64,000 bases of DNA from an uncultured Candidatus Saccharibacteria bacterium (GCA_965231055.1 OZ246411.1:48334-112333); one strand, 5' to 3'; positions 1 through 54,228 are shown, numbered from the stretch's first letter. The notes: a model not told the origin generated them from the letters alone. Numbers and translations are program-made.

Positions 1-145
1 GTCTTTTGATTTCATATAATTGCTCATATGGACAATTTGAATCGTTTTCTCAAGGGGTCTGCTTCTCTGCCTCTAAAAATATTTTAGCAAGCAGAGGTTC
101 CCTGGCAACTGAAATTTTGTCCAGATGGACAATTTTCCGAATCAA

Positions 146-190
146 ATATAAAAAGAGCCGCCATGTGTTTTAAGGACACAATGGCGGCAT
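146..190 (-). terminator. rho-independent terminator of CDS 198..839
   Basis: GC-rich hairpin gccgccatgtg...cacaatggcggc followed by T-run on minus strand. Confidence 0.55.
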
Positions 191-197
191 TTTGTTG

Positions 198-839
198 TCA
201 CTCTCCAACTTGGATAGTTTCAATTCGGATCTGGGTGCGTCTTTTGCTTCGATGATCAACAAGGATTGAGGATATAAACGGCCCGGGAGAAAACGGGATT
301 CCACTCCTGACGGTAATAACTGATGAATCCGCGTTTAGGCTGAGCTCGATTGGGACATTGATTATATCGAGATCGTCTTCCTCTTTTGGATACAACCATT
401 GTCCTGTCAGGTGATCAAGAACCAAATAAAGCACGAACATGTCAATCTTAACTTTTTGATTCCGATTTCCGTGAAATCTGACGGGGATTTTCGTAAATTC
501 ACCCCGGAGAATTCCTATTCTCAACCACTCTCTACATGTTGATTCCAGATCACCCCATGTTGTTGCAAGTTCTGATTCATACGAACGAATTTTGGAGAAT
601 TCTATGACCGCGCGCACATAACTGCAGATCAAATGCGAAGAAGCTTTGGCTAACTCAACAGGGGCATTGGGAATTCCGCAAAGCACTGATATAACCGATT
701 GCATTTTATTCATTACGATATGGTTCAACACACGACCAAGAAGATTGATCTTCTGCTCCGTCGTTGGCTCGACAACTTGTGGCTCGACGATCCTCCGATT
801 ACTACCGCTAAACCTCTTGATATTTGCTTTCTTATTCAT
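198..839 (-). CDS. hypothetical protein (GC-rich island gene, strong SD gaggagg)
   Basis: 213-aa ORF; about 50% GC versus about 33% background; strong SD 7 nt before ATG; conserved 80-nt leader upstream. Confidence 0.5.
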   Translation of the reverse strand: MNKKANIKRFSGSNRRIVEPQVVEPTTEQKINLLGRVLNHIVMNKMQSVISVLCGIPNAPVELAKASSHLICSYVRAVIEFSKIRSYESELATTWGDLESTCREWLRIGILRGEFTKIPVRFHGNRNQKVKIDMFVLYLVLDHLTGQWLYPKEEDDLDIINVPIELSLNADSSVITVRSGIPFSPGPFISSILVDHRSKRRTQIRIETIQVGE

Positions 840-924
840 AGTTTCCTCCTCGAAAGCAATTCCAAAACTACCGCCCTGTATTCAGGAGCCGTAATCGGGA
901 ATTTTGTTAACGAACAATCCATTC

Positions 925-1010
925 CTACCTCGTGCCTGAAATGCCAGAGGGTATTTCAAAAACGAAAGAAGAATGAGGGGCGAGAACAAAGATTTTGCTG
1001 CCGCCCCCTT
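925..1010 (-). promoter_or_regulatory. conserved about 80-nt leader/operator element, copy A (dyad TGAAATGCC-N5-GTATTTCA)
   Basis: about 75% identical to 1478..1555; both sit 30-90 nt upstream of adjacent minus-strand GC-island genes. Confidence 0.45.
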
Positions 1011-1023
1011 CATAGCTTGATAG

Positions 1024-1437
1024 CTACTTTTGTTGTGGCTTGAACGGACACGTTTGGATTGGACAATGAGGACAGATGAACCAGGCGAAATAGGTTTCTC
1101 TGGACATCGGATTTTTCGTCCGTGCATATGCTGTCACCGTGGAACAAACATCCCATGCATTCACAATTCTGTAAGCAAGCCGTGACGGGATCGCGCCATT
1201 TCGCTTAAGCTCAAACCACTGTTTACCCAGTAGACACCACTCGGTAACCAGTAATACCCCATAGGCCCCCATAGATAGTAGACGGTGTTCAGGTTTATCC
1301 TCCTTGAGTGGACGTTCCCAGCTCGTAACGCAAGTGAAATTTCCATAGTAACCATCTGGCCAGACCATATGATGTTCTAGTGCTTCCTTCCATTTTTTCA
1401 GATCTTCACTGTCGGGCACACGATATTCGGTGGTCAT
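1024..1437 (-). CDS. hypothetical protein (start at internal ATG 1437, SD aaggggga)
   Basis: ORF 1024..1563 trimmed to the ATG with a good SD; GC-rich; C-terminal CPHCPxxxC motif. Confidence 0.45.
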   Translation of the reverse strand: MTTEYRVPDSEDLKKWKEALEHHMVWPDGYYGNFTCVTSWERPLKEDKPEHRLLSMGAYGVLLVTEWCLLGKQWFELKRNGAIPSRLAYRIVNAWDVCSTVTAYARTKNPMSRETYFAWFICPHCPIQTCPFKPQQK

Positions 1438-1477
1438 GATTTTCCCCCTTTCATTGTTTCGACTTTCTTTCTTCGTG

Positions 1478-1555
1478 CCTGACATGCCCGGAAGCATTTC
1501 AAACACGAAGGAAGAATGAGGGACGGCGGCAGAAAGATCTGGGGCCGTCCCGAGT
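1478..1555 (-). promoter_or_regulatory. conserved about 80-nt leader/operator element, copy B (dyad TGACATGCC-N5-GCATTTCA)
   Basis: paralogous to 925..1010; shared core ccctcattcttcYttcgt. Confidence 0.45.
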
Positions 1556-1556
1556 C

Positions 1557-1814
1557 TCAACAAACGTTTCTTCGCATTTTTCGTTCCTGTTCACGCGCTC
1601 GCGCGAAGATTTCAACCAGACATTCGGGATCAAACGCCTCTTTAAGAACGGCAAAGAAATCATCACTTTTCTTGCTAGACAAAAAGTCTTGAAGATCATC
1701 CGGAATCTCACAGATCCAAGCAGCTGCAGAAATGGCTATTAAAACGCCGTCTTCTCCATGCAAGGCTTCCTCCATTTCTTTCTTAGATTTTTCAAGTATC
1801 TCGGGCCTTTTCAT
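1557..1814 (-). CDS. small acidic hypothetical protein
   Basis: 85-aa ORF with strong SD (caaggaggg); GC-rich. Confidence 0.4.
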   Translation of the reverse strand: MKRPEILEKSKKEMEEALHGEDGVLIAISAAAWICEIPDDLQDFLSSKKSDDFFAVLKEAFDPECLVEIFARAREQERKMRRNVC

Positions 1815-1946
1815 TGATTTACCCTCCTTGTTACAGCTCCGCCACTCCCTGCCTTCAAACAGAGAATCAGTGAGCTTTGTTAATGTTCATCCGTATTTAC
1901 CGTAACGCTGCATTCAACCATTAAGTCTATATAAAGTCAACACTAT

Positions 1947-1975
1947 TTGACGACTTTTGTTATTAGTGATATAAT
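1947..1975 (+). promoter_or_regulatory. sigma70-type promoter (TTGACG-17-TATAAT)
   Basis: perfect -35/-10 spacing upstream of the TrmB-like gene. Confidence 0.5.
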
Positions 1976-2027
1976 GGCTAATATAAGAGTTTTAGGTGAT
2001 TTCTATCCATTTATTTTGACATCTACT

Positions 2028-2774
2028 ATGCGCGATGAACTAATACAATTAGGTCTCTCCTCTCACCAGGCCGATATCTACCTGGCTCTTTTGGAGTCCG
2101 GACCAAGCTCAATTGGCCCCCTGGCCAAAAAAGTGCATCTGCACCGGCAGATCATCTACAATACCCTGGCTGAATTGGAACGGCAGGGTTTGGTGACTGT
2201 CTCCCCCAAAGGATATCGTCGTTATTTCCGCGCCGAGAGTCCGGAAAATATCACCCGCAATATCAAGCGCCAGGTCGCACTCGCCCAAGAAATCGTGCCG
2301 CAACTGAATCAGCACCAGGCAACCAGTAAGCACGCCAATGAAATCACTGTCTATGAAGGCATTCTGGAGATCCAGCGATTCTTTCGCCAGGCACTGGAAA
2401 ATCAACCGGCCCATAGCACGGTTTCTATCATCGGCGGTGGAGCCAGTAAGTTCTTTGATTTGGTGGATCAGGACAACTTCTTCCGGCAATATGAGAAGAT
2501 TCGTCTGCGCAAGCAGATCAAACACGCCATTCTGCTTTACGAGAATCAAAAAAAAGACCCCAAAGTGGATCTCTATACCAATCGACGCGACCTGGTGACA
2601 TCTAAATTTTTATCGGATGATTTTGATCAGCCTCTGGCCACGACTATCTGGCATGATCGCCTTTCCATGTTATTCTTCGGCCCTACTCCACTGATCATCT
2701 CCCTCAAAGGCGGAGCCCTGGTCAAAACCTACCAGAATTATTTCAAACTGCTCTGGAAAAGCGCCGGAAATTAA
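2028..2774 (+). CDS. TrmB-family transcriptional regulator
   Basis: N-terminal wHTH LGLSSHQADIYLALLESGPSSIGPLAKK...LERQGLV typical of TrmB; start moved to ATG 2028 because the ORF's first ATG lies inside the promoter. Confidence 0.65.
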   Translation: MRDELIQLGLSSHQADIYLALLESGPSSIGPLAKKVHLHRQIIYNTLAELERQGLVTVSPKGYRRYFRAESPENITRNIKRQVALAQEIVPQLNQHQATSKHANEITVYEGILEIQRFFRQALENQPAHSTVSIIGGGASKFFDLVDQDNFFRQYEKIRLRKQIKHAILLYENQKKDPKVDLYTNRRDLVTSKFLSDDFDQPLATTIWHDRLSMLFFGPTPLIISLKGGALVKTYQNYFKLLWKSAGN

Positions 2775-2818
2775 GAGGGCAGGCAGGACTCGAACTCGAT
2801 TATTTGGCTTATGAAAGC

Positions 2819-2845
2819 GAAAACCCCGTTTTGCGGGGTTTTTCG
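2819..2845 (+). terminator. rho-independent terminator
   Basis: aaccccgttttgcggggtt hairpin followed by T-run. Confidence 0.7.
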
Positions 2846-2919
2846 ATGCTGTTCACTCGAACTGTTTTTTTAGGCTGTGCTTAGCGGAAATTTGTATTCA
2901 AAGACAAATAAAAATTCGT

Positions 2920-2994
2920 TGGCTCCCCGAGCTGGACTCGAACCAGCAACCCTCTCGTTAACAGCGAGATGCTCTACCATTGAGCTATCGGGGA
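2920..2994 (-). tRNA. tRNA-Asn (anticodon GTT)
   Basis: cloverleaf: acceptor TCCCCGA/TCGGGGA, anticodon loop CTGTTAA, T-arm GGTTCGAGTCC, encoded CCA. Confidence 0.9.
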
Positions 2995-3017
2995 ATAATT
3001 GAATATGCAAATTTTTA

Positions 3018-3091
3018 TCAGCGAGATGCTCCCTGCCTCTACCTGTCGGTAGACAGGTGCCGGCAGGCAGATACCATTGAGCTATCGGGGA
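3018..3091 (-). pseudogene. truncated tRNA-Asn 5'-half pseudo-copy with 39-nt GC-rich palindromic insert in the D-loop
   Basis: TCCCCGATAGCTCAATGGTA + insert + GAGCATCTCGCTG, then diverges at the anticodon; no 3' half. Confidence 0.6.
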
Positions 3092-3100
3092 ATACGATAA

Positions 3101-3445
3101 CTAGTTTGAGCTAGAAATCATCCTTATCCTAATTTCTAGCATTTTTACTATATGCTCGCATTCGTAAGCGAGTTTTCTGTAAAATGACTTGTCTATAATA
3201 GCGGATTCGTAGAGATTGTCCAGCCATGCGAGAGTTTCATTGGCCTTTCCGAGCGCTCGCTCAAGAAATCTCTGAATATCGTTTTTATTCTGGCTTTTTC
3301 TTGCGGCAAGTAGATAATTGTCCACTGCCTCTGAAGACTCTATCATTTTCTCCCCTATCTCAGACATCACAAATCCTCTTGGCAACTTGTCAGCCAATAA
3401 AACAATCTGGGTGGAAAAACGTCCTGATGTTTCTATGATATCCAT
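3101..3445 (-). CDS. four-helix-bundle protein (23S rRNA-intervening-sequence protein family-like)
   Basis: 114-aa helical protein; start set to MDIIETS to avoid overlap with rpoD. Confidence 0.45.
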   Translation of the reverse strand: MDIIETSGRFSTQIVLLADKLPRGFVMSEIGEKMIESSEAVDNYLLAARKSQNKNDIQRFLERALGKANETLAWLDNLYESAIIDKSFYRKLAYECEHIVKMLEIRIRMISSSN

Positions 3446-3452
3446 GGAAAAT

Positions 3453-4796
3453 TTAATAGTCTCTAAGTTTTTTAAGATCTTCGTCTGCACGTATTTTTTC
3501 AAGTGCCTTCGCCTCTATCTGTCTTATACGCTCTCTCGTCACTCCAAATTCTTGTCCCACTTCCTCAAGAGTGTGTCCTATTCCATCAGTAAGTCCAAAT
3601 CGCATCTCTAGAATTTTTTGTTCTCTTGGGAGCAATCTTCTGAGTACTTTTTCAACATGCTCTTTGAGAAGCTTTCTGGCTGCACTTTGACTTGGAGAAA
3701 GAGTTTTGTCGTCTTCAATAAAATCTCCGAGCGTGCTCTCGCTGTCATCATCATCTCCCACTGAAGTCTGAAGTGAAACTGTTTCTTGATTTATTTTTAT
3801 AATATGTCTAACCTTGTCCACGTCCATTCCCATTTCTGCTGCAATTTCTTCTGGCAAAGGCTCTCTTCCGAGATCCTGAACTAGTCTTCGCGAAATTTGT
3901 GTAAATTTATTTATAGTTTCAACCATGTGCACAGGAATACGAATAGTTCTTGATTGATCAGCTAGCGCTCTTGTGATTGCTTGCCTGATCCACCATGTCG
4001 CATAAGTTGAAAATTTGTATCCCTTGCGATAATCAAATTTATCTACAGCTCTAAACAATCCTATATTTCCCTCTTGAATAAGATCAAGCAGTGTCAGGTC
4101 TCCTTGTCCTACATATTTTTTGGCAATACTTACGACAAGTCTCAAGTTGGCTTCAATCAATCTTTTGCGAGCCGCCTTGTCCCCTCGTTTCATTCTTTTT
4201 GCGAGCATCACTTCTTCTTCTCCTGTCAAAAGATTTACTCTACCTATTTCTCGTAGATACATCTGCACAGAATCTCCAGCAAGTCCGCCTGAAAAATCTT
4301 GACTGCTAAAAGTTTCACTTCCTTCATCTGATTCTTCTTCAATTTTCAATATCTCTGTCTCGTGTTTTTTTGATTCCAAAACTTCCTTCTTGGCTTCGAT
4401 AACAGAAGCATCCATGGATAGCGCTTCTTTACCTTCTACTACGTCTATGCCTTCATTATCAAAATACTCCAAAACTTCTTCAAGTTTTTGGATATTGGTT
4501 TCGGCTTCAGGTATTGCTTGCAAAATTTCGCCCTCAGAAACAAATCCTTGATCCTTGCCCTTGACTATAAGTTCATCAATTGATTTCTTCTGTTCTTCTG
4601 GAGTGATGCTCTGAATTTCTTTTTCTGATTTGGCTGGTGTTTTTACCCGAGAAAGAAATCCTTTTCTTTTCTTCGCATACTTTGCTTTTCTTTTGGCGTT
4701 CTGTTTTCTGGTTTTCTTTCGGGGCTTGCGAACCATTTTTACTCGCCTAGATTTTGCTGGTTTAGCCTTTTTCTTTTTGGAAGTTTTTTTCTTCAC
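3453..4796 (-). CDS. rpoD: RNA polymerase sigma factor RpoD (sigma-70) with lysine-rich N-terminus
   Basis: regions 2-4 motifs [50 protein letters not shown]. Confidence 0.95.
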
Positions 4797-7261: not shown

Positions 7262-7283
7262 TCAAATATACCATATCCGGCTA

Positions 7284-7316
7284 AAAAAATGGGATTCGAA
7301 CCTAAGCTCGAATCCC
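7284..7316 (-). terminator. rho-independent terminator built on a tRNA T-arm-like hairpin
   Basis: gggattcgaacctaagctcgaatccc hairpin + T7 on minus strand; contains GGTTCGAATCCCAT. Confidence 0.6.
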
Positions 7317-7339
7317 AACAAAGAACACGCATCGCGATA

Positions 7340-7768
7340 TCACCACTTGATAGTTGCAAGTAATCTCCTGGTATCAATAGCGCTCTTTAAACTCTCTGTA
7401 GACATAGTTTCGTGCCTGTACAGAATCTTGGATTGAGTCTCATAATCGCTCCAAATGGTAAATTCGCAATCTTGATTCAATTCAAACTGTTCCTCGGAAC
7501 GAGCAACACCAAGACGAAGAATGATAGTTTTGTTCTCGCATTTGTAGTCAGCACGGATACGGTACTGACCAATCAAATCCCCCAAGGACACTTCAACCGA
7601 AACAAAACCCCTGATGTCGAAACCCACGCGTTTCAGAAGAGAAAAAAGTAAATCACGCGCAGGATCATCGCTATCAATAGAGATAAACGTGAGTTTTGAA
7701 TTCTTAAAGGTCCGTGGTTCTTGCTTTTGAGATTTGTTTTTCTTGGAATTTCTTAAAAAAACACCCAT
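7340..7768 (-). CDS. hypothetical protein
   Basis: 142-aa ORF, no recognisable motif. Confidence 0.4.
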   Translation of the reverse strand: MGVFLRNSKKNKSQKQEPRTFKNSKLTFISIDSDDPARDLLFSLLKRVGFDIRGFVSVEVSLGDLIGQYRIRADYKCENKTIILRLGVARSEEQFELNQDCEFTIWSDYETQSKILYRHETMSTESLKSAIDTRRLLATIKW

Positions 7769-7862
7769 AACACCTCCTTGTCTGTTAATTGGGCAATTTG
7801 CATACTAGCAGAAAATTAAAGCTAGTCAATATTGGATAAAAAGGACTCTCAAATTCAAACAT

Positions 7863-13950: not shown

Positions 13951-13964
13951 CTGGTCGGGGCGAG
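13951..13964 (-). repeat. 14-nt direct repeat of the tRNA-Pro 3' end (ctggtcggggcgag), att-like
   Basis: identical to 14753..14766; adjacent 35-nt hairpin 13919..13953. Confidence 0.45.
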
Positions 13965-14218
13965 TGAACGAAATCCGAACTTTTTTGTGGGAACATCTGG
14001 ATGATTTCCATGCGCCGGATTTCTCTTAAACAAGCTGATTTCATGTAAGTAATAATAGCAGAACAGACAAAATCGACAAGTCTTGACTTGCTTCTCATGA
14101 GAATAAATTTTGTGGAAAAGAAAAAGAGGTTCACCATCTCAGTGGCAAGCCTCTCTTCAACTATCATACTCGAAGATTGCTCAAACAGAAGATTATTCTT
14201 TTTTGTCAGCAACTTTTT

Positions 14219-14464
14219 TTAAGTTGTTCCCATCTTTCTTCTACTGAGAGGATTCCGAATTCCTCCAATTGAGAAGAAATTATTGAAAAATGCTTCTCCT
14301 TCTCCGAGGGTTTCGAAATCTGATGTCAGTATGCGTGTTTCTAACTCCAGTGTTATTGCCTGACAATGAGCGCAACTGTGAGCATGCTCAGACATAATAT
14401 CCATTTGCTCAGGAGTAGGTTCTGTTTCTTGTTCCAATAGCTTTTTATACTCTTCACAAGTCAT
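14219..14464 (-). CDS. zf-HC2-like putative anti-sigma factor zinc-finger protein
   Basis: MTCEEYKKLLEQ...HAHSCAHCQ matches C-x(n)-H-x3-C-x2-C. Confidence 0.4.
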   Translation of the reverse strand: MTCEEYKKLLEQETEPTPEQMDIMSEHAHSCAHCQAITLELETRILTSDFETLGEGEAFFNNFFSIGGIRNPLSRRKMGTT

Positions 14465-14586
14465 AATTAGTCCTCCCAGCTGATATGTTCAGCTTTTTGA
14501 ATTATTAAATGAACCATATCTTTACTATGCTTAGACAATTACATTTTTTACTAATTTTGTCAATATCTTAAAGGACAAGAACCCTG

Positions 14587-14602
14587 ATGGGATTCGAACC
14601 CC
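14587..14602 (-). other. tRNA 3'-end-like fragment (GGGGTTCGAATCCCAT)
   Basis: T-arm-like 16-mer without 5' half; same 14-mer as at 7289..7302. Confidence 0.4.
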
Positions 14603-14753
14603 ACAATTTACCTAACCCAAGCGAAAAACCGGCTTTTGACTGGTTTTTTTCATTTTCGTTCGAACTTTTCCTTCTGGATTTTCGGATCTTTATTGAGCTT
14701 AGGTTAGCCAAAAATGGAAAGTTGTAGGTATTAAAACAACAACCTGTTGCATC

Positions 14754-14831
14754 TGGTCGGGGCGAGAGGATTTGAACCTCCGGTCTCATGCACCCCATGC
14801 ATGCACTTTAGGCCAGCTAAGCTACGCCCCG
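14754..14831 (-). tRNA. tRNA-Pro (anticodon GGG)
   Basis: acceptor CGGGGCG/CGCCCCG, anticodon stem CATGC/GCATG loop ATGGGGT, T-arm GGAGGTTCAAATCCTCT, CCA. Confidence 0.9.
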
Positions 14832-14884
14832 ATAATAATATTCGCTTGTTATAAAAATTTTCACACAAAACCTAATCAACTACA

Positions 14885-14933
14885 CCTTAGGCCAGACCCG
14901 AGGGGTCCCCCTTGGGGCTAAGCTACCCCCCGA
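14885..14933 (-). pseudogene. truncated tRNA-Pro 5' pseudo-copy with 22-nt GC-rich palindromic insert in the D-loop
   Basis: CGGGGGGTAGCTTAG + ccccaagggggacccctcgggt + CTGGCCTAAGG, then diverges. Confidence 0.55.
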
Positions 14934-17121: not shown

Positions 17122-18720
17122 TTATTCTAGTGTGATAGAAATCTGATTTGAATAAACACCGCATGCTCCACCGAGATATTCGCATACTCTAACATAATAT
17201 TTTCCTGCGCCATCAAAAGCATTTACAGATGAACCCGTCACCGTAGCGCTGTTGTAGTAAAGGTATTTGTCATCGGCTCTAGTGGGGTAAGTAGGATTTT
17301 TGTTTTTTGACCAAACTACTTTAAATCCACTTTCCGAATATCCATTTACTGACCAGCTTATTTTACCACTTCCCAAGTAGCTAAGTGCGATTGAATCCAC
17401 TCCACTTGCCTGCTGTTCTTTTTTAGGAGCCGTTACTGTTATATTGTTACTATAAACTCCGCAACTTCCTCCGAGATACTGACACACCCTAAAATGATAA
17501 GTTTTTCCATCTTGGATAGACCATTTATAGCTTCTAGTAGCATTATCTGATAGGTACTGATAATCATTTCCAGGATATACAGGACTTGCTGATTCGCTTT
17601 TTACAAGCTTAAATCCCTGAGAAATATCAACCCCCGTAACCGTCCAGCTAAAATTTATTCCGTCATCAGTGGCGCTACCTGAAAGCGAGATAGATGCGCC
17701 CTGCTGTTGTTGCTGATTGGATTCTTGATTTTGTTCCTGAGCCCTTTCGCGTCTCGTAACTTTAAGACTTTTTTCATTTTTATGACCAAGGGAATTTTCG
17801 GCTCTCACGTTTATTTTGTTCTCACCCATCTCTAGTGCTATTTTTTGAGAAAATTTTCCGTCTGTATTTGTCACTTCCGTATCGTTTATATAAACTTTGG
17901 CATCGGTATCTGTCTTTCCTTCAACTAAAATCTCTGAATCCTCGGTGGTAGCTTCGTTTTTGGGGGTTGAAATTTCTAGCATCACACCATCAATGTTTTG
18001 CAAAAATCCCATTTTGTTTTTGAAATCTTCAAGCTTGAGGTCTTCACTCCTATTCCAAACTACAAATTCGTCTTCCTTCAAATCATCTAGGTTTAATTCG
18101 CCAATTTCATTGTTTTCCTTACCGTCTTTTACGAAATAGTATTCCTTACCTTGTTCTATTGTTTTTGATTCATCAGCTTTCTTAAATTCTACAGAGCTTT
18201 CAAAAACCTCAACTCCCTTTTCCGAATCCATATTCTTTGTGAGATATGCCGTGCCCAATGATTTCATGGAGTATTCATCAATTTTGACTTCAAATGATCT
18301 CTCGAGATCTGCGATTCTAGAATAAACTTCTCCTTTTTTATTTGTAATAACTATGGAATTTGGGTGCAAACTAGTAAGTTCCACTTCAGTGTTATTGTTT
18401 AATCTCAAAACACTTCCATCATCCAAACTTAATATCGCCTTGCCATTGTCACCAGTTTTTATCATGTCTCCCTCCTGCAAATCAAAATTTTGAGGAAGGT
18501 TTCCCGTAGATCCTAATCTTACATATTCTATAGTCCCCTCTACATATGCGGAGACAGCTTTCAATGAAGCTACGCCATGATCATCGTCCCTACTCGCATT
18601 CCATATAAAAAAGAGGGATACGATAATAGCAACTGCTAAAACTGTCATACAAATCCAAAAAAATCTTGGAACCCTACCTTTTTGCATAAAATCTCCAATT
18701 TTTTGTAGAAATTGCTTCAT
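17122..18720 (-). CDS. membrane-anchored protein with FecR-like domain and two C-terminal about 85-aa tandem repeats
   Basis: N-terminal TM; FecR-like GDMIKTGDNGKAILSLDDGSVLRL; repeats ending RVCQYLGGSCGVYSN / RVCEYLGGACGVYSN. Confidence 0.5.
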   Translation of the reverse strand: MKQFLQKIGDFMQKGRVPRFFWICMTVLAVAIIVSLFFIWNASRDDDHGVASLKAVSAYVEGTIEYVRLGSTGNLPQNFDLQEGDMIKTGDNGKAILSLDDGSVLRLNNNTEVELTSLHPNSIVITNKKGEVYSRIADLERSFEVKIDEYSMKSLGTAYLTKNMDSEKGVEVFESSVEFKKADESKTIEQGKEYYFVKDGKENNEIGELNLDDLKEDEFVVWNRSEDLKLEDFKNKMGFLQNIDGVMLEISTPKNEATTEDSEILVEGKTDTDAKVYINDTEVTNTDGKFSQKIALEMGENKINVRAENSLGHKNEKSLKVTRRERAQEQNQESNQQQQQGASISLSGSATDDGINFSWTVTGVDISQGFKLVKSESASPVYPGNDYQYLSDNATRSYKWSIQDGKTYHFRVCQYLGGSCGVYSNNITVTAPKKEQQASGVDSIALSYLGSGKISWSVNGYSESGFKVVWSKNKNPTYPTRADDKYLYYNSATVTGSSVNAFDGAGKYYVRVCEYLGGACGVYSNQISITLE

Positions 18721-18764
18721 GTTTTTTGATTAAATATAATATCTAATATTATCATATTTTGGGT

Positions 18765-18793
18765 TTTTTAAAAAACCGCTTCTTGGGGCGGTT
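18765..18793 (-). terminator. rho-independent terminator
   Basis: aaccgc..gcggtt hairpin + T-run on minus. Confidence 0.5.
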
Positions 18794-26358: not shown

Positions 26359-26913
26359 ATGAAAAAGCATGTTTACTTATTAGTTGGTCAGCGTGGAGCA
26401 GGCAAAAGTTATTACGCCAAGCGATTGCTCACTGCACAACCCGAACTTTTACTCATAAGTCGTGACGAGATTCTTGTGCGTAATTTCGGCTCTACCGATA
26501 CGAACCCCTACGGCGGAACACAATGGTATGCCCTCAAGGCTATGCATCGTCTTCTTCGCTTTGTACTTCGGACTCGACCAACAGCCAAAATCATACTGGA
26601 CTGCTGGACAGGAGACAGCAAGGAACGAGCGTCACTTGTGCAAAAGCTCATAGAATACGGTGCGACCAAGGTTGTAGCTCTTTATTTTATAACACCACGC
26701 GAGATCGTAAACGATTGGTTTTGGCTCAAACCGGGAATAGCAAAAATGGAAGAGATGAGGTCACGTAAAGGGGAAAATCTTGTGTATTTTTCTGCCGAAG
26801 CACCCTTGCGAGATCATGAAGTATTCCATCAATTTGCACAGCAAATCGATTCAGACGGCTTCGATGAAGTTATCAGAATCAATCCACTCAACGAGCTCGT
26901 ATTCCTAGACTAA
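26359..26913 (+). CDS. P-loop kinase/ATPase (AAA_33/zeta-toxin-like); GC-rich, strong SD
   Basis: Walker A GQRGAGKS; about 50% GC; SD gaggagga; directly 3' of tRNA-Ser. Confidence 0.6.
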   Translation: MKKHVYLLVGQRGAGKSYYAKRLLTAQPELLLISRDEILVRNFGSTDTNPYGGTQWYALKAMHRLLRFVLRTRPTAKIILDCWTGDSKERASLVQKLIEYGATKVVALYFITPREIVNDWFWLKPGIAKMEEMRSRKGENLVYFSAEAPLRDHEVFHQFAQQIDSDGFDEVIRINPLNELVFLD

Positions 26914-29205: not shown

Positions 29206-29553
29206 TTAAAATCTCTTCAGTCCTCCTGGCTCTTTGTTGGCATTGCCCGCTGCAACCATCCTGCTCCACTGCCAAAAAGATATCGGGCGAGGAACTTTGG
29301 TCGGATTTTCAGCGGACACCGTTTCAATCGGAAAAACTTGAGCATTCATATCCTTGAATTCCTCGAGTTTTTGAGCCGAATACAAAGAACATTTCGAAGG
29401 ATCAGCCCCTACGACTGTGCACGGGCAGAACTCTTCTCCACCCGTAGAAATTATACCACAGCACTTCTCTGTTTCACCCTGCAGAGTCGTATCGACAAAA
29501 ATCCCTGGAGCAACCTGGCGAAAACCATAAAAAGAACAGCTTCTCTTACCCAT
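29206..29553 (-). CDS. hypothetical protein (GC-rich, strong SD aaggagg)
   Basis: 115 aa; about 50% GC; own SD and terminator. Confidence 0.4.
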   Translation of the reverse strand: MGKRSCSFYGFRQVAPGIFVDTTLQGETEKCCGIISTGGEEFCPCTVVGADPSKCSLYSAQKLEEFKDMNAQVFPIETVSAENPTKVPRPISFWQWSRMVAAGNANKEPGGLKRF

Positions 29554-39027: not shown

Positions 39028-39636
39028 CTAAACCCCGAATGACCTGATCACGTATGAATTAACAAACTCGAGAACTGTAGGCATCACGGATATGACCTTC
39101 TCAATCTCAACAACAATCTCGGGTGGAATTCTTCTAAATTCTTCCTTCACCTCTTGAAGAAAAGATTTTGTTAATTTCGCCCGAGACTTATTCTCGTAAT
39201 CAAGAATGTCCCCGTTACCATAGTGTGCGAAATCACTTTCATAATACGGACGGTCATGTGGTTGATCAATGGATTTTGGGAGTAAAATTTTGAGCATCGG
39301 CAACCAGAAAATCTTGGAAACAGATTTTTCGTTTTCGATGTACACACGCCACAGCATCAACCACGAATAAATTTCAACATTTGGCCGCCAATCAAGGGGC
39401 TCTGGATCAGGCGGAACAATGAGTTTGTCAGTCACGGTGGCTATCATGGTAGCTGAAAGGCAATACGAAATCCACCGAAAATTAACTGGGCAAAAACTAC
39501 TGCCCACACCTTTTCCGAGAATAATATAATCATAACTCACATCTCCAGCACCCATAAGAGATAACCACTTCATCACATCGTTCATCTGAAGAAGATCTGC
39601 AGTCAAAAATTCACTAGGTAATACAAGCTTATTCAT
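39028..39636 (-). CDS. hypothetical protein (GC-elevated, strong SD aaggag)
   Basis: 202 aa; about 41% GC. Confidence 0.4.
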   Translation of the reverse strand: MNKLVLPSEFLTADLLQMNDVMKWLSLMGAGDVSYDYIILGKGVGSSFCPVNFRWISYCLSATMIATVTDKLIVPPDPEPLDWRPNVEIYSWLMLWRVYIENEKSVSKIFWLPMLKILLPKSIDQPHDRPYYESDFAHYGNGDILDYENKSRAKLTKSFLQEVKEEFRRIPPEIVVEIEKVISVMPTVLEFVNSYVIRSFGV

Positions 39637-48143: not shown

Positions 48144-48689
48144 TTATCGCATCCGCATTTTCAATTCCCATTTCACAAGATTATCCAAAATATATTGCTG
48201 AAATCGTGCATATTTATTTTGATTTCTGATAATGCGATCGTAATATGATTTTTGCCAGGCAAAATCTACGCCATTTAATTGTCGATGAATTTCGCGGGTT
48301 GTGGATGATTTGAATCCGTGAATGATTTTAGGCAAATGCATTTTGGTGCGATATTGATTATATGAATATTGCGATTGTAGGGAATGCAGATCTGCATTCC
48401 CTACAATCATTGCGGATATCATATCCGCATTTTCAATAATCAATATTCCATGAATATGATCGGGCATGATGATAAAATAACCCAAAACCACATTTTTGAA
48501 ATGAAATGGAATTGATCGCCAACATTCATTCGCAATTTTTCCGATTTGGAATAAAATTATTTTGCCATTTTTTATTTTACCCAAAACACGCTTGCGATCT
48601 TTGACACAAATCGTAATAAAATAATAACCTGGACTACTATAATCATATCTTTTTAATCTGATTGATTTACGATTGCGATATTTTTGCAT
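48144..48689 (-). CDS. RAYT/IS200-like HuH tyrosine transposase carrying an in-frame REP-like palindrome
   Basis: GYYFITICVKDR; HuH PDHIHGIL; catalytic WQKSYYDRII; about 25-aa insert encoded by GTAG-flanked palindrome 48373..48440. Confidence 0.7.
   Translation of the reverse strand: MQKYRNRKSIRLKRYDYSSPGYYFITICVKDRKRVLGKIKNGKIILFQIGKIANECWRSIPFHFKNVVLGYFIIMPDHIHGILIIENADMISAMIVGNADLHSLQSQYSYNQYRTKMHLPKIIHGFKSSTTREIHRQLNGVDFAWQKSYYDRIIRNQNKYARFQQYILDNLVKWELKMRMR
48373..48440. repeat. REP-like element: 34-bp perfect palindrome attGTAGggaatgcagatctgcattccCTACaat plus 19-bp palindrome tgcggatatcatatccgca
   Basis: read directly; lies inside the transposase CDS; 15-nt atccgcattttcaat repeated at 48151 and 48423. 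Confidence 0.7.
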
Positions 48690-52990: not shown

Positions 52991-53860
52991 ATGGGTTCTT
53001 TAAAAAATAAATTTGGAAGTGATATCGAAAACCCTATGTTTTATCGCGAGACCATGTTACCCTTTTGCAAAAAGAATCGCACCATCAGTATCCAAAATCA
53101 AGAAATGAGGAAGCTTCAAAAAAGATTTGCAAAATATATTAGGCAAATCAAAAGTTGGAATGAAGAAAAGTCTGTTGTCGTAAATTTGATACTCCATTCA
53201 TATCAAGGAAGATTTTTCTATCTCACAGATATTTGCGATGCCTTTTCATCTGTAAAGCTAGATCGATTTTTGGGAGCTTTTTCAAGGGCGAGCCATAATC
53301 ATTGGAGTGATGCCAAAGAATTTCTGCAAATCTTTTTTTCCGAAAACGGAGAACTAATTACCGGAGGATCAGCATCTCCCGCAATCTTTAGCCTGTACTG
53401 TCACTTATTGCTAGATGTCGAAATCAGAAACGTAATTGAAAATCAACCAATACTGTACACGAGATATGTTGACAACCTAACATTTTCATCACCCAAAAGA
53501 ATTGGAGCTAAGACAAGAAAAGAAATAAGAAGAGCTATGGCAAAAGTTGGGTTTAGACCAAATCATGGTAAATCCAAAGTCCTCGACATAAAAAAGGGAC
53601 CAATAAATATCATGGGACTAAATATGGATGACTCGAGACAGGTATTTTTCCGCAGAGAAATGCTGGCAAAAATTCACGGACTCCTACATTCATACAAGTC
53701 TAGAAAAGATGTCCCAATCGAGGTGTTACTTGGTTATTACGGCATATTCAAAGATCTTTATATAAACCACAGCCACCGCGCAAAAACAACATCACTTTCA
53801 GAAAAAATCAAAGCTCAATTTCAAGAACTATTTTTACAAACACGAGGGGATTATTTTTGA
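52991..53860 (+). CDS. retron-type reverse transcriptase (YXDD box = YVDN)
   Basis: RT motifs KKNRTISIQNQEMRKLQ (1), NLILH (NAxxH), FYLTDICDAF (A), GGSASPAIFSLY (B'), YTRYVDNLTFSS (C), IMGLNM (VTG-like); SD aggagg. Confidence 0.75.
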   Translation: MGSLKNKFGSDIENPMFYRETMLPFCKKNRTISIQNQEMRKLQKRFAKYIRQIKSWNEEKSVVVNLILHSYQGRFFYLTDICDAFSSVKLDRFLGAFSRASHNHWSDAKEFLQIFFSENGELITGGSASPAIFSLYCHLLLDVEIRNVIENQPILYTRYVDNLTFSSPKRIGAKTRKEIRRAMAKVGFRPNHGKSKVLDIKKGPINIMGLNMDDSRQVFFRREMLAKIHGLLHSYKSRKDVPIEVLLGYYGIFKDLYINHSHRAKTTSLSEKIKAQFQELFLQTRGDYF

Positions 53861-53878
53861 TCCCCTTTTTTATTTTTT
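53846..53878 (+). terminator. rho-independent terminator of RT gene
   Basis: ggggattatttttgatcccc + T-run; a second minus-strand terminator follows at 53879..53911. Confidence 0.6.
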
Positions 53879-53925
53879 AAATAAAAAGACCCTCCAACTT
53901 TTGGAGGGTCTATATGGACTACTAT

Positions 53926-54228
53926 TTATTTAGCTGTGAACCACTTGATGCTGGTGATCAATGCCCATACCCAAGCGATCATCATTAGAGGGATTCCGAT
54001 AATCATTCCAATTATGGTCCAGATCAATACCCATCCTACCAAAGCTAGAACCAACTGGATAACTCCTGGCTTCATTTGCTTGGCAATAATTGTTCCAAGT
54101 CCAGGAAGAACTGCTATGTTGACGATCAAACCGACGATTTTCAAAGTCTGGTTTGGATCTGATGGCTGTGTGGCAGGTCCTGTTGGAGGAGTCTGCTGTG
54201 GAGCCGACTGCTGTGCTTGATTTTCCAT
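53926..54228 (-). CDS. small 2-TM membrane protein with Q/P-rich N-terminus
   Basis: MENQAQQSAPQQTPP + 2-3 TM; resembles the N-terminus of 47702..48061. Confidence 0.45.
   Translation of the reverse strand: MENQAQQSAPQQTPPTGPATQPSDPNQTLKIVGLIVNIAVLPGLGTIIAKQMKPGVIQLVLALVGWVLIWTIIGMIIGIPLMMIAWVWALITSIKWFTAK

Follow-up and report, generated by a model that had tools for sequence, protein, structure and literature searches.

A probable mosaic accessory islet with a TrmB-family regulator beside tRNA-Asn of a Moranbacteria-like bacterium

Genomes of Patescibacteria, also known as the candidate phyla radiation (CPR), are small, and gene flow among them is little characterised. Here we describe a tract of atypical composition that adjoins a tRNA-Asn gene in the 64,000-nucleotide stretch OZ246411.1:48334-112333 (GCA_965231055.1, listed as an uncultured Candidatus Saccharibacteria bacterium); this whole stretch is referred to as the window. 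Judged by RpoD, which is 64-72% identical to that of Moranbacteria-like Patescibacteria metagenome-assembled genomes (MAGs), the host is a Moranbacteria-like CPR bacterium. The first 2.9 kb of the window encode a TrmB-family helix-turn-helix (HTH) regulator and a string of three small genes divergent from it, and end in a short junction module next to the tRNA (Table 1). On balance, we consider positions 1-2919 to be the proximal part of a real, approximately 6.8-kb mosaic accessory islet at the tRNA-Asn slot that carries no integrase, its proximal approximately 3 kb being a laterally circulating "TrmB module". Such an islet is an unusual variant of a well-known kind, i.e. foreign DNA at a tRNA-linked slot.

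Table 1. Features of the window, in order of position (SD, Shine-Dalgarno sequence; duplex energies in kcal/mol; GC3, GC at third codon positions).
Feature	Position	Strand	Remarks
Proximal 2.9 kb of the ~6.8-kb compositionally atypical tract	1..2919	.	GC, tetranucleotides, contig L001
p213, SD-led near-ORFan	198..839	-	duplex -11.6; L085 homologue 62% identical (amino acids)
Double-hairpin element, copy B, upstream of p213	920..1007	-	repeat family D1, alignment, consensus fold
p137, SD-led ORFan	1024..1437	-	duplex -11.0
Double-hairpin element, copy A, upstream of p137	1463..1551	-	five-copy alignment, consensus fold
p85, SD-led small gene, divergent from TrmB	1557..1814	-	duplex -11.7
Divergent control region with TrmB promoter	1815..2027	.	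TTGACG 1947-1952, TATAAT 1970-1975
TrmB-family HTH regulator gene	2028..2774	+	PF01978; GC3 0.57; no SD; convergent with tRNA-Asn
Junction module	2776..2870	-	half palindrome, box 2, hairpin, box 1
tRNA-Asn(GTT), intact, slot anchor	2920..2994	-	ARAGORN; Rfam tRNA 72.6 bits
Partial 5' tRNA-Asn copy (positions 1-20 + 21-33)	3019..3091	-	k-mer matches
ORFan p142, SD-led	7340-7768
tRNA-Pro(GGG) islet, 0.8 kb	13951..14766	-	14-nt direct repeat of tRNA 3' end
AAA_33 kinase-like singleton, SD-led	26359..26913	+	GC 0.45; duplex -12.0
ORFan, SD-led	29206-29553		GC 0.47; duplex -11.8
ORFan, SD-led	39028-39636		GC 0.41; duplex -8.9
IS200-like TnpA (Y1 transposase), SD-led	48144-48689
Reverse transcriptase, SD-led	52991-53860		RVT_1, 289 aa

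Composition, genes and structured spacers of the tract

The atypical DNA begins at position 2919 and abuts the 3' end of the tRNA-Asn gene, as had been stated in a preliminary description made from the sequence alone. The content of guanine plus cytosine (GC) amounts to 45.8% at positions 200-2800 and to 36.7% at positions 3500-64000, which served as the backbone reference (whole-window mean 37.1%). Among backbone windows of 2.6 kb the standard deviation is 1.6% and the maximum 40.3%, which places the segment about 5-6 standard deviations above the backbone. The preliminary description had put the contrast at 50% against 33%; the elevation is real, but these figures exaggerate it. Within the tract GC is uneven, ranging from 37% to 54% in 200-nt windows, and averages 44.9% over positions 1-2919 and 43.2% over the full length of approximately 6.8 kb.

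The tract runs about 3.86 kb past the left edge of the window, to roughly position -3857 (about 7800 in contig L001). Contig L001 (Logan SRR10912416_2054; 21.6 kb; listed with "samples_with_this_contig: 4") was found via the encoded p213, matches the window at 100% identity over 3,942 nt and reaches 9.8 kb further left, thereby spanning backbone, islet and backbone. Tetranucleotide correlation with the backbone is 0.82-0.88 from about -3800 to +3700 and 0.95-0.98 outside. Left of p213 lie two ORFans of 152 and 105 aa that are led by strong Shine-Dalgarno (SD) sequences, a DUF7670 gene and an SD-led gene for a sulfatase-family protein. Altogether, five consecutive small genes and the sulfatase gene are SD-led in the contig. 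The flanking low-GC genes further left (CSD, GIY-YIG, HI0933-like flavoprotein, metK and others) are not.

The regulator gene most likely starts at ATG 2028, as its homologues have 247-249 aa. Its N-terminal winged-helix matches PF01978 with 46.3 bits (cutoff 25.6, E=4e-12). On the other hand, the C-terminal approximately 150 residues match no sugar-binding TrmB equivalog of NCBIfam, and the sugar-sensing C-terminal domain of TrmB/TrmBL1 was not detected (equivalogs at 16-27 bits versus cutoffs of 500-650). Likeness to the TrmB family thus lies in the winged-helix, in the position divergent from possible targets and in a palindrome at the -35 hexamer, whereas no match to a characterised sugar-binding C-terminal part was found here and close homologues number only four among 5.8 billion proteins. 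The TrmB promoter (TTGACG-17-TATAAT, 1947-1975) is near-consensus, with 11/12 matches in a promoter scan. Read by eye, an inverted repeat AAAGTC..GACTTT surrounds its -35 hexamer, and a palindrome of the AGTCAA..TTGACT type is visible also in the metagenomic contig L093. Via this predicted operator, TrmB would regulate its own gene and control the divergent string.

A second copy of the TrmB module is carried by L085, a 3.5-kb Logan contig from another sample with approximately 45% GC. It shares TrmB, the control region, the 3' untranslated region of TrmB and the junction boxes, at 84% DNA identity to positions 1786-2863 of the window; the control region is likewise 84% conserved. The two copies differ in the gene content of the string, p85 and p137 of the window being exchanged for p195, p116(142) and p171 in L085, with the p213 homologue and the spacer element described below common to both. 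The N-terminus of p195 shares 31% identity with p85, and p195 itself matches a long open reading frame (ORF) beside TrmB in contigs L086 and L093. By these similarities, p85 is a conserved partner of this TrmB subfamily. An alignment scan of Joint Genome Institute (JGI) metagenomes with TrmB matched only two short contigs (L093, 111-1316; L086/L092), which represent more distant versions of the locus and in which a single ORF of approximately 380 aa divergent from TrmB combines p195-like and p171-like regions. Fragmentation may have given rise to the string, or fusion to the long ORF.

Among 5.8 billion proteins, a search with p213 returned only p213 itself. An exhaustive HMMER search returned one protein, P0126 (library-wide E=1.5e-6), which has five MerR/HTH_17 (excisionase-type) helix-turn-helix repeats and to which residues 89-133 of p213 weakly align. 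As a lead only, this suggests that p213 may belong to a type of DNA-binding protein that mobile elements often carry. Searches of Pfam, PHROG and NCBIfam gave no matches for the ORFans, p137 included, and the AlphaFold2 model of p137 is uninformative (predicted local distance difference test 36).

Apart from the first, each gene of the string follows a double-hairpin element of 88-89 nt with a variable terminal loop. Five copies are available, two from the window and three from L085. In the element, a 13-bp GC-rich hairpin is followed by one of approximately 25 bp with five conserved U.G pairs. Over its 38 pairs, 92% of the cells are paired as compared to 45-56% in slid controls, and six pairs show compensatory changes on both sides. 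The conserved U.G pairs would be C.A mismatches on the other strand, so the structure exists on the sense strand only and is an RNA feature. According to the alignment, the 3' arm of the long hairpin holds a GAGG-N5-ATG that opens a short ORF of variable length. This ORF (MDCSLT.../MGCSLT..., 12-29 codons) starts in the arm in 4/5 element copies, and in one copy its stop overlaps the start of p213 (ATGA). As folded, the long hairpin would hide the SD and start codon of the short ORF. We hypothesize that the first hairpin would terminate or stabilise the upstream mRNA, and that the long G.U-rich hairpin would act at the RNA level, through processing, stability or occlusion of the short upstream ORF.

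A search of positions 1-4000 against Rfam returned only tRNA and sub-threshold noise and no match for the element, and the exact 26-base gapped pattern of the element had 0 matches in JGI metagenomes. Five single matches of an 18-base element pattern in IMG/VR were judged to be at about chance level and set aside. Phage polycistronic mRNAs carry intercistronic RNase III hairpins, and by analogy only the imperfect, strand-specific hairpin of about 25 bp between short SD-led cistrons resembles these. It differs in that a GC-rich hairpin precedes each long hairpin and in the lack of phage genes nearby (PHROGs, IMG/VR), and processing is putative. Next to the short ORF (region 890-1007 of the window), a conserved TCGTTAACA (905-913) matches 9 nt from the anticodon arm of tRNA-Asn in reverse complement; as GTTAAC is a palindrome, this may be a coincidence.

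Relatives of the regulator and Shine-Dalgarno signals

Two of the four TrmB homologues are informative, at 88-90% identity. The chromosome OZ246404.1 (1.136 Mb; 47-50% GC in both fetched regions) belongs to a fairly distant relative with 65% identity in RpoD, 39% in DnaG and 31% in IVP, whereas its TrmB is 88% identical to that of the window. Relative synonymous codon usage of TrmB correlates with r=0.65 to the genes of OZ246404.1 and with r=-0.22 to the host backbone. The TrmB gene of OZ246404.1 occupies a different locus, where it fits the local GC of 47-50%. From the contrast of 88% in TrmB with 31-65% in backbone proteins, together with the donor-like codons, these comparisons show that TrmB has been transferred laterally between lineages, with the GC-richer lineage as the likely source. 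The locus thereby documents, in a clean and quantifiable way, a lateral exchange between two CPR lineages that are related but differ greatly in GC.

Every ORF start in the window (61 genes) was scored by its duplex energy with the anti-SD tail, in kcal/mol. The energies are bimodal: 9/61 genes reach -8.9 kcal/mol or lower, and 52/61 are weaker than -5.8 kcal/mol. The latter take in rpoD, dnaG, groEL, groES and uvrA, so that the earlier claim of backbone genes without SD is borne out. It had also been claimed that all four genes of the segment have strong SDs. This applies to p213, p137 and p85 but not to TrmB, whose duplex energy of +0.7 kcal/mol means that it has none. GC is higher in SD-led genes than in the others (Mann-Whitney p=0.004).

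Outside the islet, six genes of the window are SD-led, namely the IS200-like TnpA, the reverse transcriptase, the AAA_33 kinase and three ORFans. Two of these ORFans (29206-29553 and 39028-39636) had already been described as GC-elevated and SD-led, which our values confirm. The kinase-like gene, for which the same signature as that of the islet had been proposed, is indeed SD-led and GC-elevated, and is convergent with and 3' of tRNA-Ser(GGA) as TrmB is to tRNA-Asn, but no att-like repeat of tRNA-Ser(GGA) was found to flank positions 26359-26913. The reverse transcriptase gene adjoins a GC-rich ORF of 100 aa (region 52991-54228). As regards IS200/IS605-type ends, the CTGCCTGC motif was not found near the tnpA gene. 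The third ORFan, p142, is absent at the orthologous place in L094, a contig of a relative with 97% RpoD identity (region 7262-7831 of the window). Homology to L094 (86.8% at the DNA level) ends just upstream of Sua5, beside a T-loop-like terminator (GGGATTCGAGCTTAGGTTCGAATCCC, about 7290-7315) that has the shape of a tRNA T arm, and L094 carries a GGGGTTCGAGTG box at the same spot.

Core genes are without SD in both the host and OZ246404.1, and most SD-led genes are small hypotheticals; as exceptions, the score also places the GIY-YIG and IVP genes of OZ246404.1 among the SD-led. All nine SD-led genes of the window look accessory, and a strong SD is a useful flag for accessory genes in the genomes examined. 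It would be a simple marker of accessory versus core genes where the core, groEL/ES included, is without SD. We propose that strong SDs would be the signature of a shared pool of mobile or accessory genes in hosts with SD-free core genes. In a survey, the anti-SD motif was present in only approximately 48% of 16S genes of Parcubacteria (PMC9297842). If the host rRNA were without an anti-SD tail, the SDs would be either unused relics or part of an unknown initiation route for mobile genes.

The tRNA-Asn slot and the arrival of its cargo

The gene order dnaG-rpoD-IVP-tRNA-Asn is common to the host and OZ246404.1. In the latter, at least 9 kb 3' of tRNA-Asn have a low GC of 33-43%, with a GC3 of 0.31-0.46 as compared to 0.54-0.61 in the backbone. 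This tract (L095 11869-21296) encodes Pur_DNA_glyco, Fic, TIR-TPR, SduA_C (Shedu-like) and HNH domains, by which it is probably a defence island. As deviant cargo lies 3' of tRNA-Asn in both genomes, with compositions shifted in opposite directions, the flank behind rpoD looks like a recurring cargo slot. In three distant MAGs (L004, L006, L007) the contigs end at the tRNA-Asn downstream of rpoD or at most a few hundred nt beyond it, an anecdotal observation that fits variable DNA at the slot.

On the tRNA strand, the junction reads tRNA, 62 nt, AGTTCGAGTG, hairpin, GAGTTCGAGTCC and CCTGCCTGCC, the last being fused to the stop codon of TrmB. In window coordinates, the half palindrome CCTGCCTGCC is at 2778-2787, the T-loop-like box 2 at 2786-2796, the hairpin at about 2818-2845 and box 1 at 2855-2862. 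The T loop of the tRNA is matched by a 10-mer (2786-2795) and an 8-mer (2855-2862), and GTTCGAGT has only three occurrences in 73.8 kb (window plus extension), all of them within 150 nt on the minus strand. The hairpin is strong and terminator-like, and reads as a bidirectional terminator. The boxes are real and non-random but short, and by their sequence are not recognisable decayed halves of a tRNA.

A junction unit of approximately 82 nt is conserved in L085, an independent module copy, and a paralogue lies 3' of tRNA-Pro at 14590-14669 (local score 34 versus 17 +/- 2.4 for shuffles; 0/2000 reach it). Since the module is kept in L085 and recurs at tRNA-Pro, the boxes would belong to the incoming element family and are not simply decayed copies of the resident tRNA-Asn. 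Of the earlier account of tRNA 3' copies at the junction, the non-random boxes therefore stand and their origin simply as decayed copies of the resident tRNA does not. The box pairs can be read as a target duplication of 7-8 nt around a hairpin insert of approximately 59 nt, or as candidate recombinase-binding repeats.

The tRNA-Pro(GGG) islet carries perfect copies of the tRNA 3' end at 14753-14766 and 13951-13964, 0.8 kb apart, with a degenerate T loop preceding the distal copy. In it follow the junction module and then an SD-led gene for an 81-aa Cys/His-rich protein (14219-14464). A direct repeat of a tRNA 3' end is a hallmark of site-specific integration. By its sequence the 14-nt repeat is a classical attR-type scar, and this locus is the best evidence that the boxes may be integration-related.

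This data may suggest a mechanism by which the DNA at tRNA-Asn would have entered by recombination at the tRNA gene, through a recombinase that would have acted in trans or been lost, and by which the T-loop-like boxes would be part of a junction module left by a tRNA-targeting element family. The TrmB module, i.e. a regulator with its own sigma-70-type promoter and a divergent string of SD-led near-ORFans separated by the double-hairpin element, would circulate laterally among related CPR bacteria.

Several results weigh against such an islet and its proposed mode of arrival. No integrase, excisionase or transposase was found within 10.8 kb of the tRNA (Pfam gene table, PHROG, NCBIfam), and a scan of 13.7 kb with k>=9 showed no distal copy of the 3' end of tRNA-Asn. 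In the preliminary description, the missing integrase had been ascribed to truncation of the island by the window edge. The leftward extension of 9.8 kb does not bear this out, as it holds no integrase or recombinase, and the 3' end of tRNA-Asn is not repeated there in direct orientation either. A relative with an empty site was not found among 80 GTDB rpoD loci, where relatives are too distant and share no left-flank genes, and the contig of the 97%-RpoD relative, L094, ends inside the tRNA-Asn region. Codon usage is backbone-like in the sulfatase (r = 0.63) and DUF7670 (r = 0.54) genes; hence, the tract is a mosaic and not one recent island, and its left boundary near -3857 is supported by GC and SD only. 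The codon usage of the SD-led ORFans matches neither the host nor OZ246404.1. TrmB is 90% identical in L085, and DnaG is 87% identical between the window and L094. L085 may thus stem from a close relative and be orthologous to the islet, which would make the acquisition older than the species. Finally, a search for the anti-SD sequence of the host 16S rRNA in the window and the 8 kb to its right returned no rRNA gene.

The k>=9 scan had yielded only the proximal 10-mer (L001 1148-1157) and a 10-mer at L001 11946; the latter, considered as an att site, was rejected, being at chance level and in the backbone. With regard to age, the distal approximately 3.7 kb (two SD-led ORFans, DUF7670 and sulfatase) are older or partly ameliorated cargo. 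A foreign segment as first described is thus upheld by composition and by the lateral origin of TrmB, but not as a single recent island. Altogether, that observation was real but overstated, with its interpretation supported in part.

A serious rival, to which we give a real though clearly smaller likelihood, is an exchange of cargo by homologous recombination, anchored on one side at the conserved tRNA-Asn (and rpoD/IVP) and on the other at a second conserved flank; the boxes and tRNA fragments would then be passengers or old scars. The missing integrase and distal att repeat would be expected here, and the dnaG-rpoD-IVP-tRNA-Asn flank is conserved down to 65% RpoD identity. The module of L085 is alignable to within approximately 60 nt of the expected start of the tRNA, and tRNA-Asn itself is identical in 65/76 positions, counted by eye, between host and OZ246404.1. 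However, none of the fetched relatives shows synteny with the left flank (CSD, GIY-YIG, HI0933, metK), and the tRNA-Pro islet, which shares the junction module, has the direct repeat that marks site-specific integration.

It appears improbable that the tract is native and vertically inherited, as a GC-richer, fast-evolving regulatory operon whose SDs reflect an initiation mode specific to a gene class. OZ246404.1 has SD-led small hypotheticals among SD-less housekeeping genes at its own GC, so that SD may mark a gene class; the sulfatase and DUF7670 genes share the backbone codon usage, and the divergence of L085 is compatible with co-divergence. On the other hand, the two-genome comparison points to incongruence, in view of the identity of TrmB (88% versus 31-65% in backbone proteins) and its donor-type codons, and TrmB stands at a different locus in OZ246404.1. 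The atypical tetranucleotide signature and the lack of the SD-led p142 at the corresponding place in L094 also argue against a native origin.

The string could also be an integron-like cassette array, a cluster of attC sites lacking integron integrases (CALIN), in which the double hairpins are attC sites for an integrase elsewhere in the genome. We consider this very unlikely. Small, co-oriented and mostly ORFan genes are split here by a conserved structured element of 88-89 nt with a variable loop, and gene content is shuffled between homologous arrays that keep their elements, all of which resembles integron arrays and CALINs. By inspection of the five-copy alignment, however, the element ends have no R''/R' core sites (RYYYAAC / GTTRRRY). 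The G.U-dependent repeat with its five conserved U.G pairs and the SD of each gene fit an RNA element, and, unlike such arrays, the string has an upstream regulator and promoter. There is no IntI in the first 3.5 kb of the window or in the 9.8-kb extension, the rest of the 844-kb genome not having been searched, and the exact element pattern is absent from JGI metagenomes. The attC reading was rejected on motif and strand grounds.

An assembly chimera joining a GC-richer contig to a CPR backbone at the tRNA, as might be suspected from the abrupt change in composition at a repeat-like tRNA gene and from contig breaks at tRNA-Asn in several relatives, is effectively refuted by the independent Logan contig, whose identity runs through both boundaries and which continues into low-GC, SD-less backbone.

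Prophage or phage remnant and plasmid were rejected as well, since PHROGs, a TrmB scan of IMG/VR and blastn against phages and plasmids were all negative; PHROGs gave only generic HTH matches for TrmB and one family of unknown function for the sulfatase.

Coming back to the accessory islet that we favour, the closest known systems are tRNA-associated genomic islands, which are of the tyrosine-integrase type with att sites at the tRNA 3' end. The tract resembles these in its position 3' of an intact tRNA, its atypical composition, its accessory and ORFan cargo and its tRNA-derived junction boxes; furthermore, the slot holds other deviant cargo in one relative, with no empty site found and the contig of the close relative L094 ending inside the tRNA region, and the sister locus at tRNA-Pro has the 14-nt repeat. 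It differs from integrase-mediated islands in the two defining tests, as neither an integrase or excisionase near the islet nor a distal tRNA-Asn repeat was found. In addition, its boxes of 8-11 nt sit in a module of approximately 82 nt and are not a duplicated tRNA, and the tract is mosaic in age. Lateral origin together with distinct composition is found for TrmB only, the distal genes being backbone-like.

The islet is thus fairly ordinary in kind, and notable mainly for strong ribosome-binding sites in most of its genes, which are missing from the host's own genes. The practical consequence is modest. The interest lies mainly in the SD dichotomy, the cargo of opposite GC in one slot, the structured spacer element and the partial tRNA copies described in the following.

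Palindromes and partial tRNA copies

Twenty-one nt upstream of the real tRNA-Asn, the partial 5' copy at 3019-3091 has a GC-rich hairpin of 40 nt (3032-3071) inserted in its D loop. Its fold has an energy of -14.7 kcal/mol (z = -4.0), and L094 has an orthologous arrangement. Such partial 5' copies are oriented like the intact gene and precede it by 20-250 nt, with a GC-rich palindromic hairpin in the D loop. Further loci are at 14883-14932 in the window (tRNA-Pro), at 4838-4965 in L094 (tRNA-Asn, twice) and, in OZ246404.1, at tRNA-His and tRNA-Val (L083, about 18340-18440 and 18740-18790). In L094, the counterpart of the intact tRNA-Asn of the window shows a perfect 20-nt palindrome after GGTA, at which the contig stops.

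The palindrome CCTGCCTGCCGGCAGGCAGG, or nested and half versions of it, recurs beside tRNA genes in genomes that are only 65% identical in RpoD. Sites of this type are at 7288-7305 and 7521-7538 in L095, at 18743-18762 in L083, at 4940-4959 in L094, and at 2778-2787, 3062-3071 and about -85 in the window and its extension. Judged by its form, the palindrome could be a motif resembling repetitive extragenic palindromic sequences, or a recombination-site motif.

The SD-strong accessory genes, the hairpin-punctuated ORFan string, the approximately 82-nt module at two tRNA loci and the tRNA 5' copies bearing CCTGCCTGCCGGCAGGCAGG could together be the footprint of an undescribed CPR-specific gene-mobility system, which we regard as a rather doubtful proposition. 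Such a system would rely on palindromes at tRNA genes and on a host-encoded (e.g. Xer-like) or trans-acting recombinase, with no integrase borne on the island, and would move genes with translation signals unlike those of the core genome of the host.

As a further observation, CTGCCTGC has only three occurrences in the 73.8 kb of window plus extension; these are on one strand, and all lie in the islet or at its edge.

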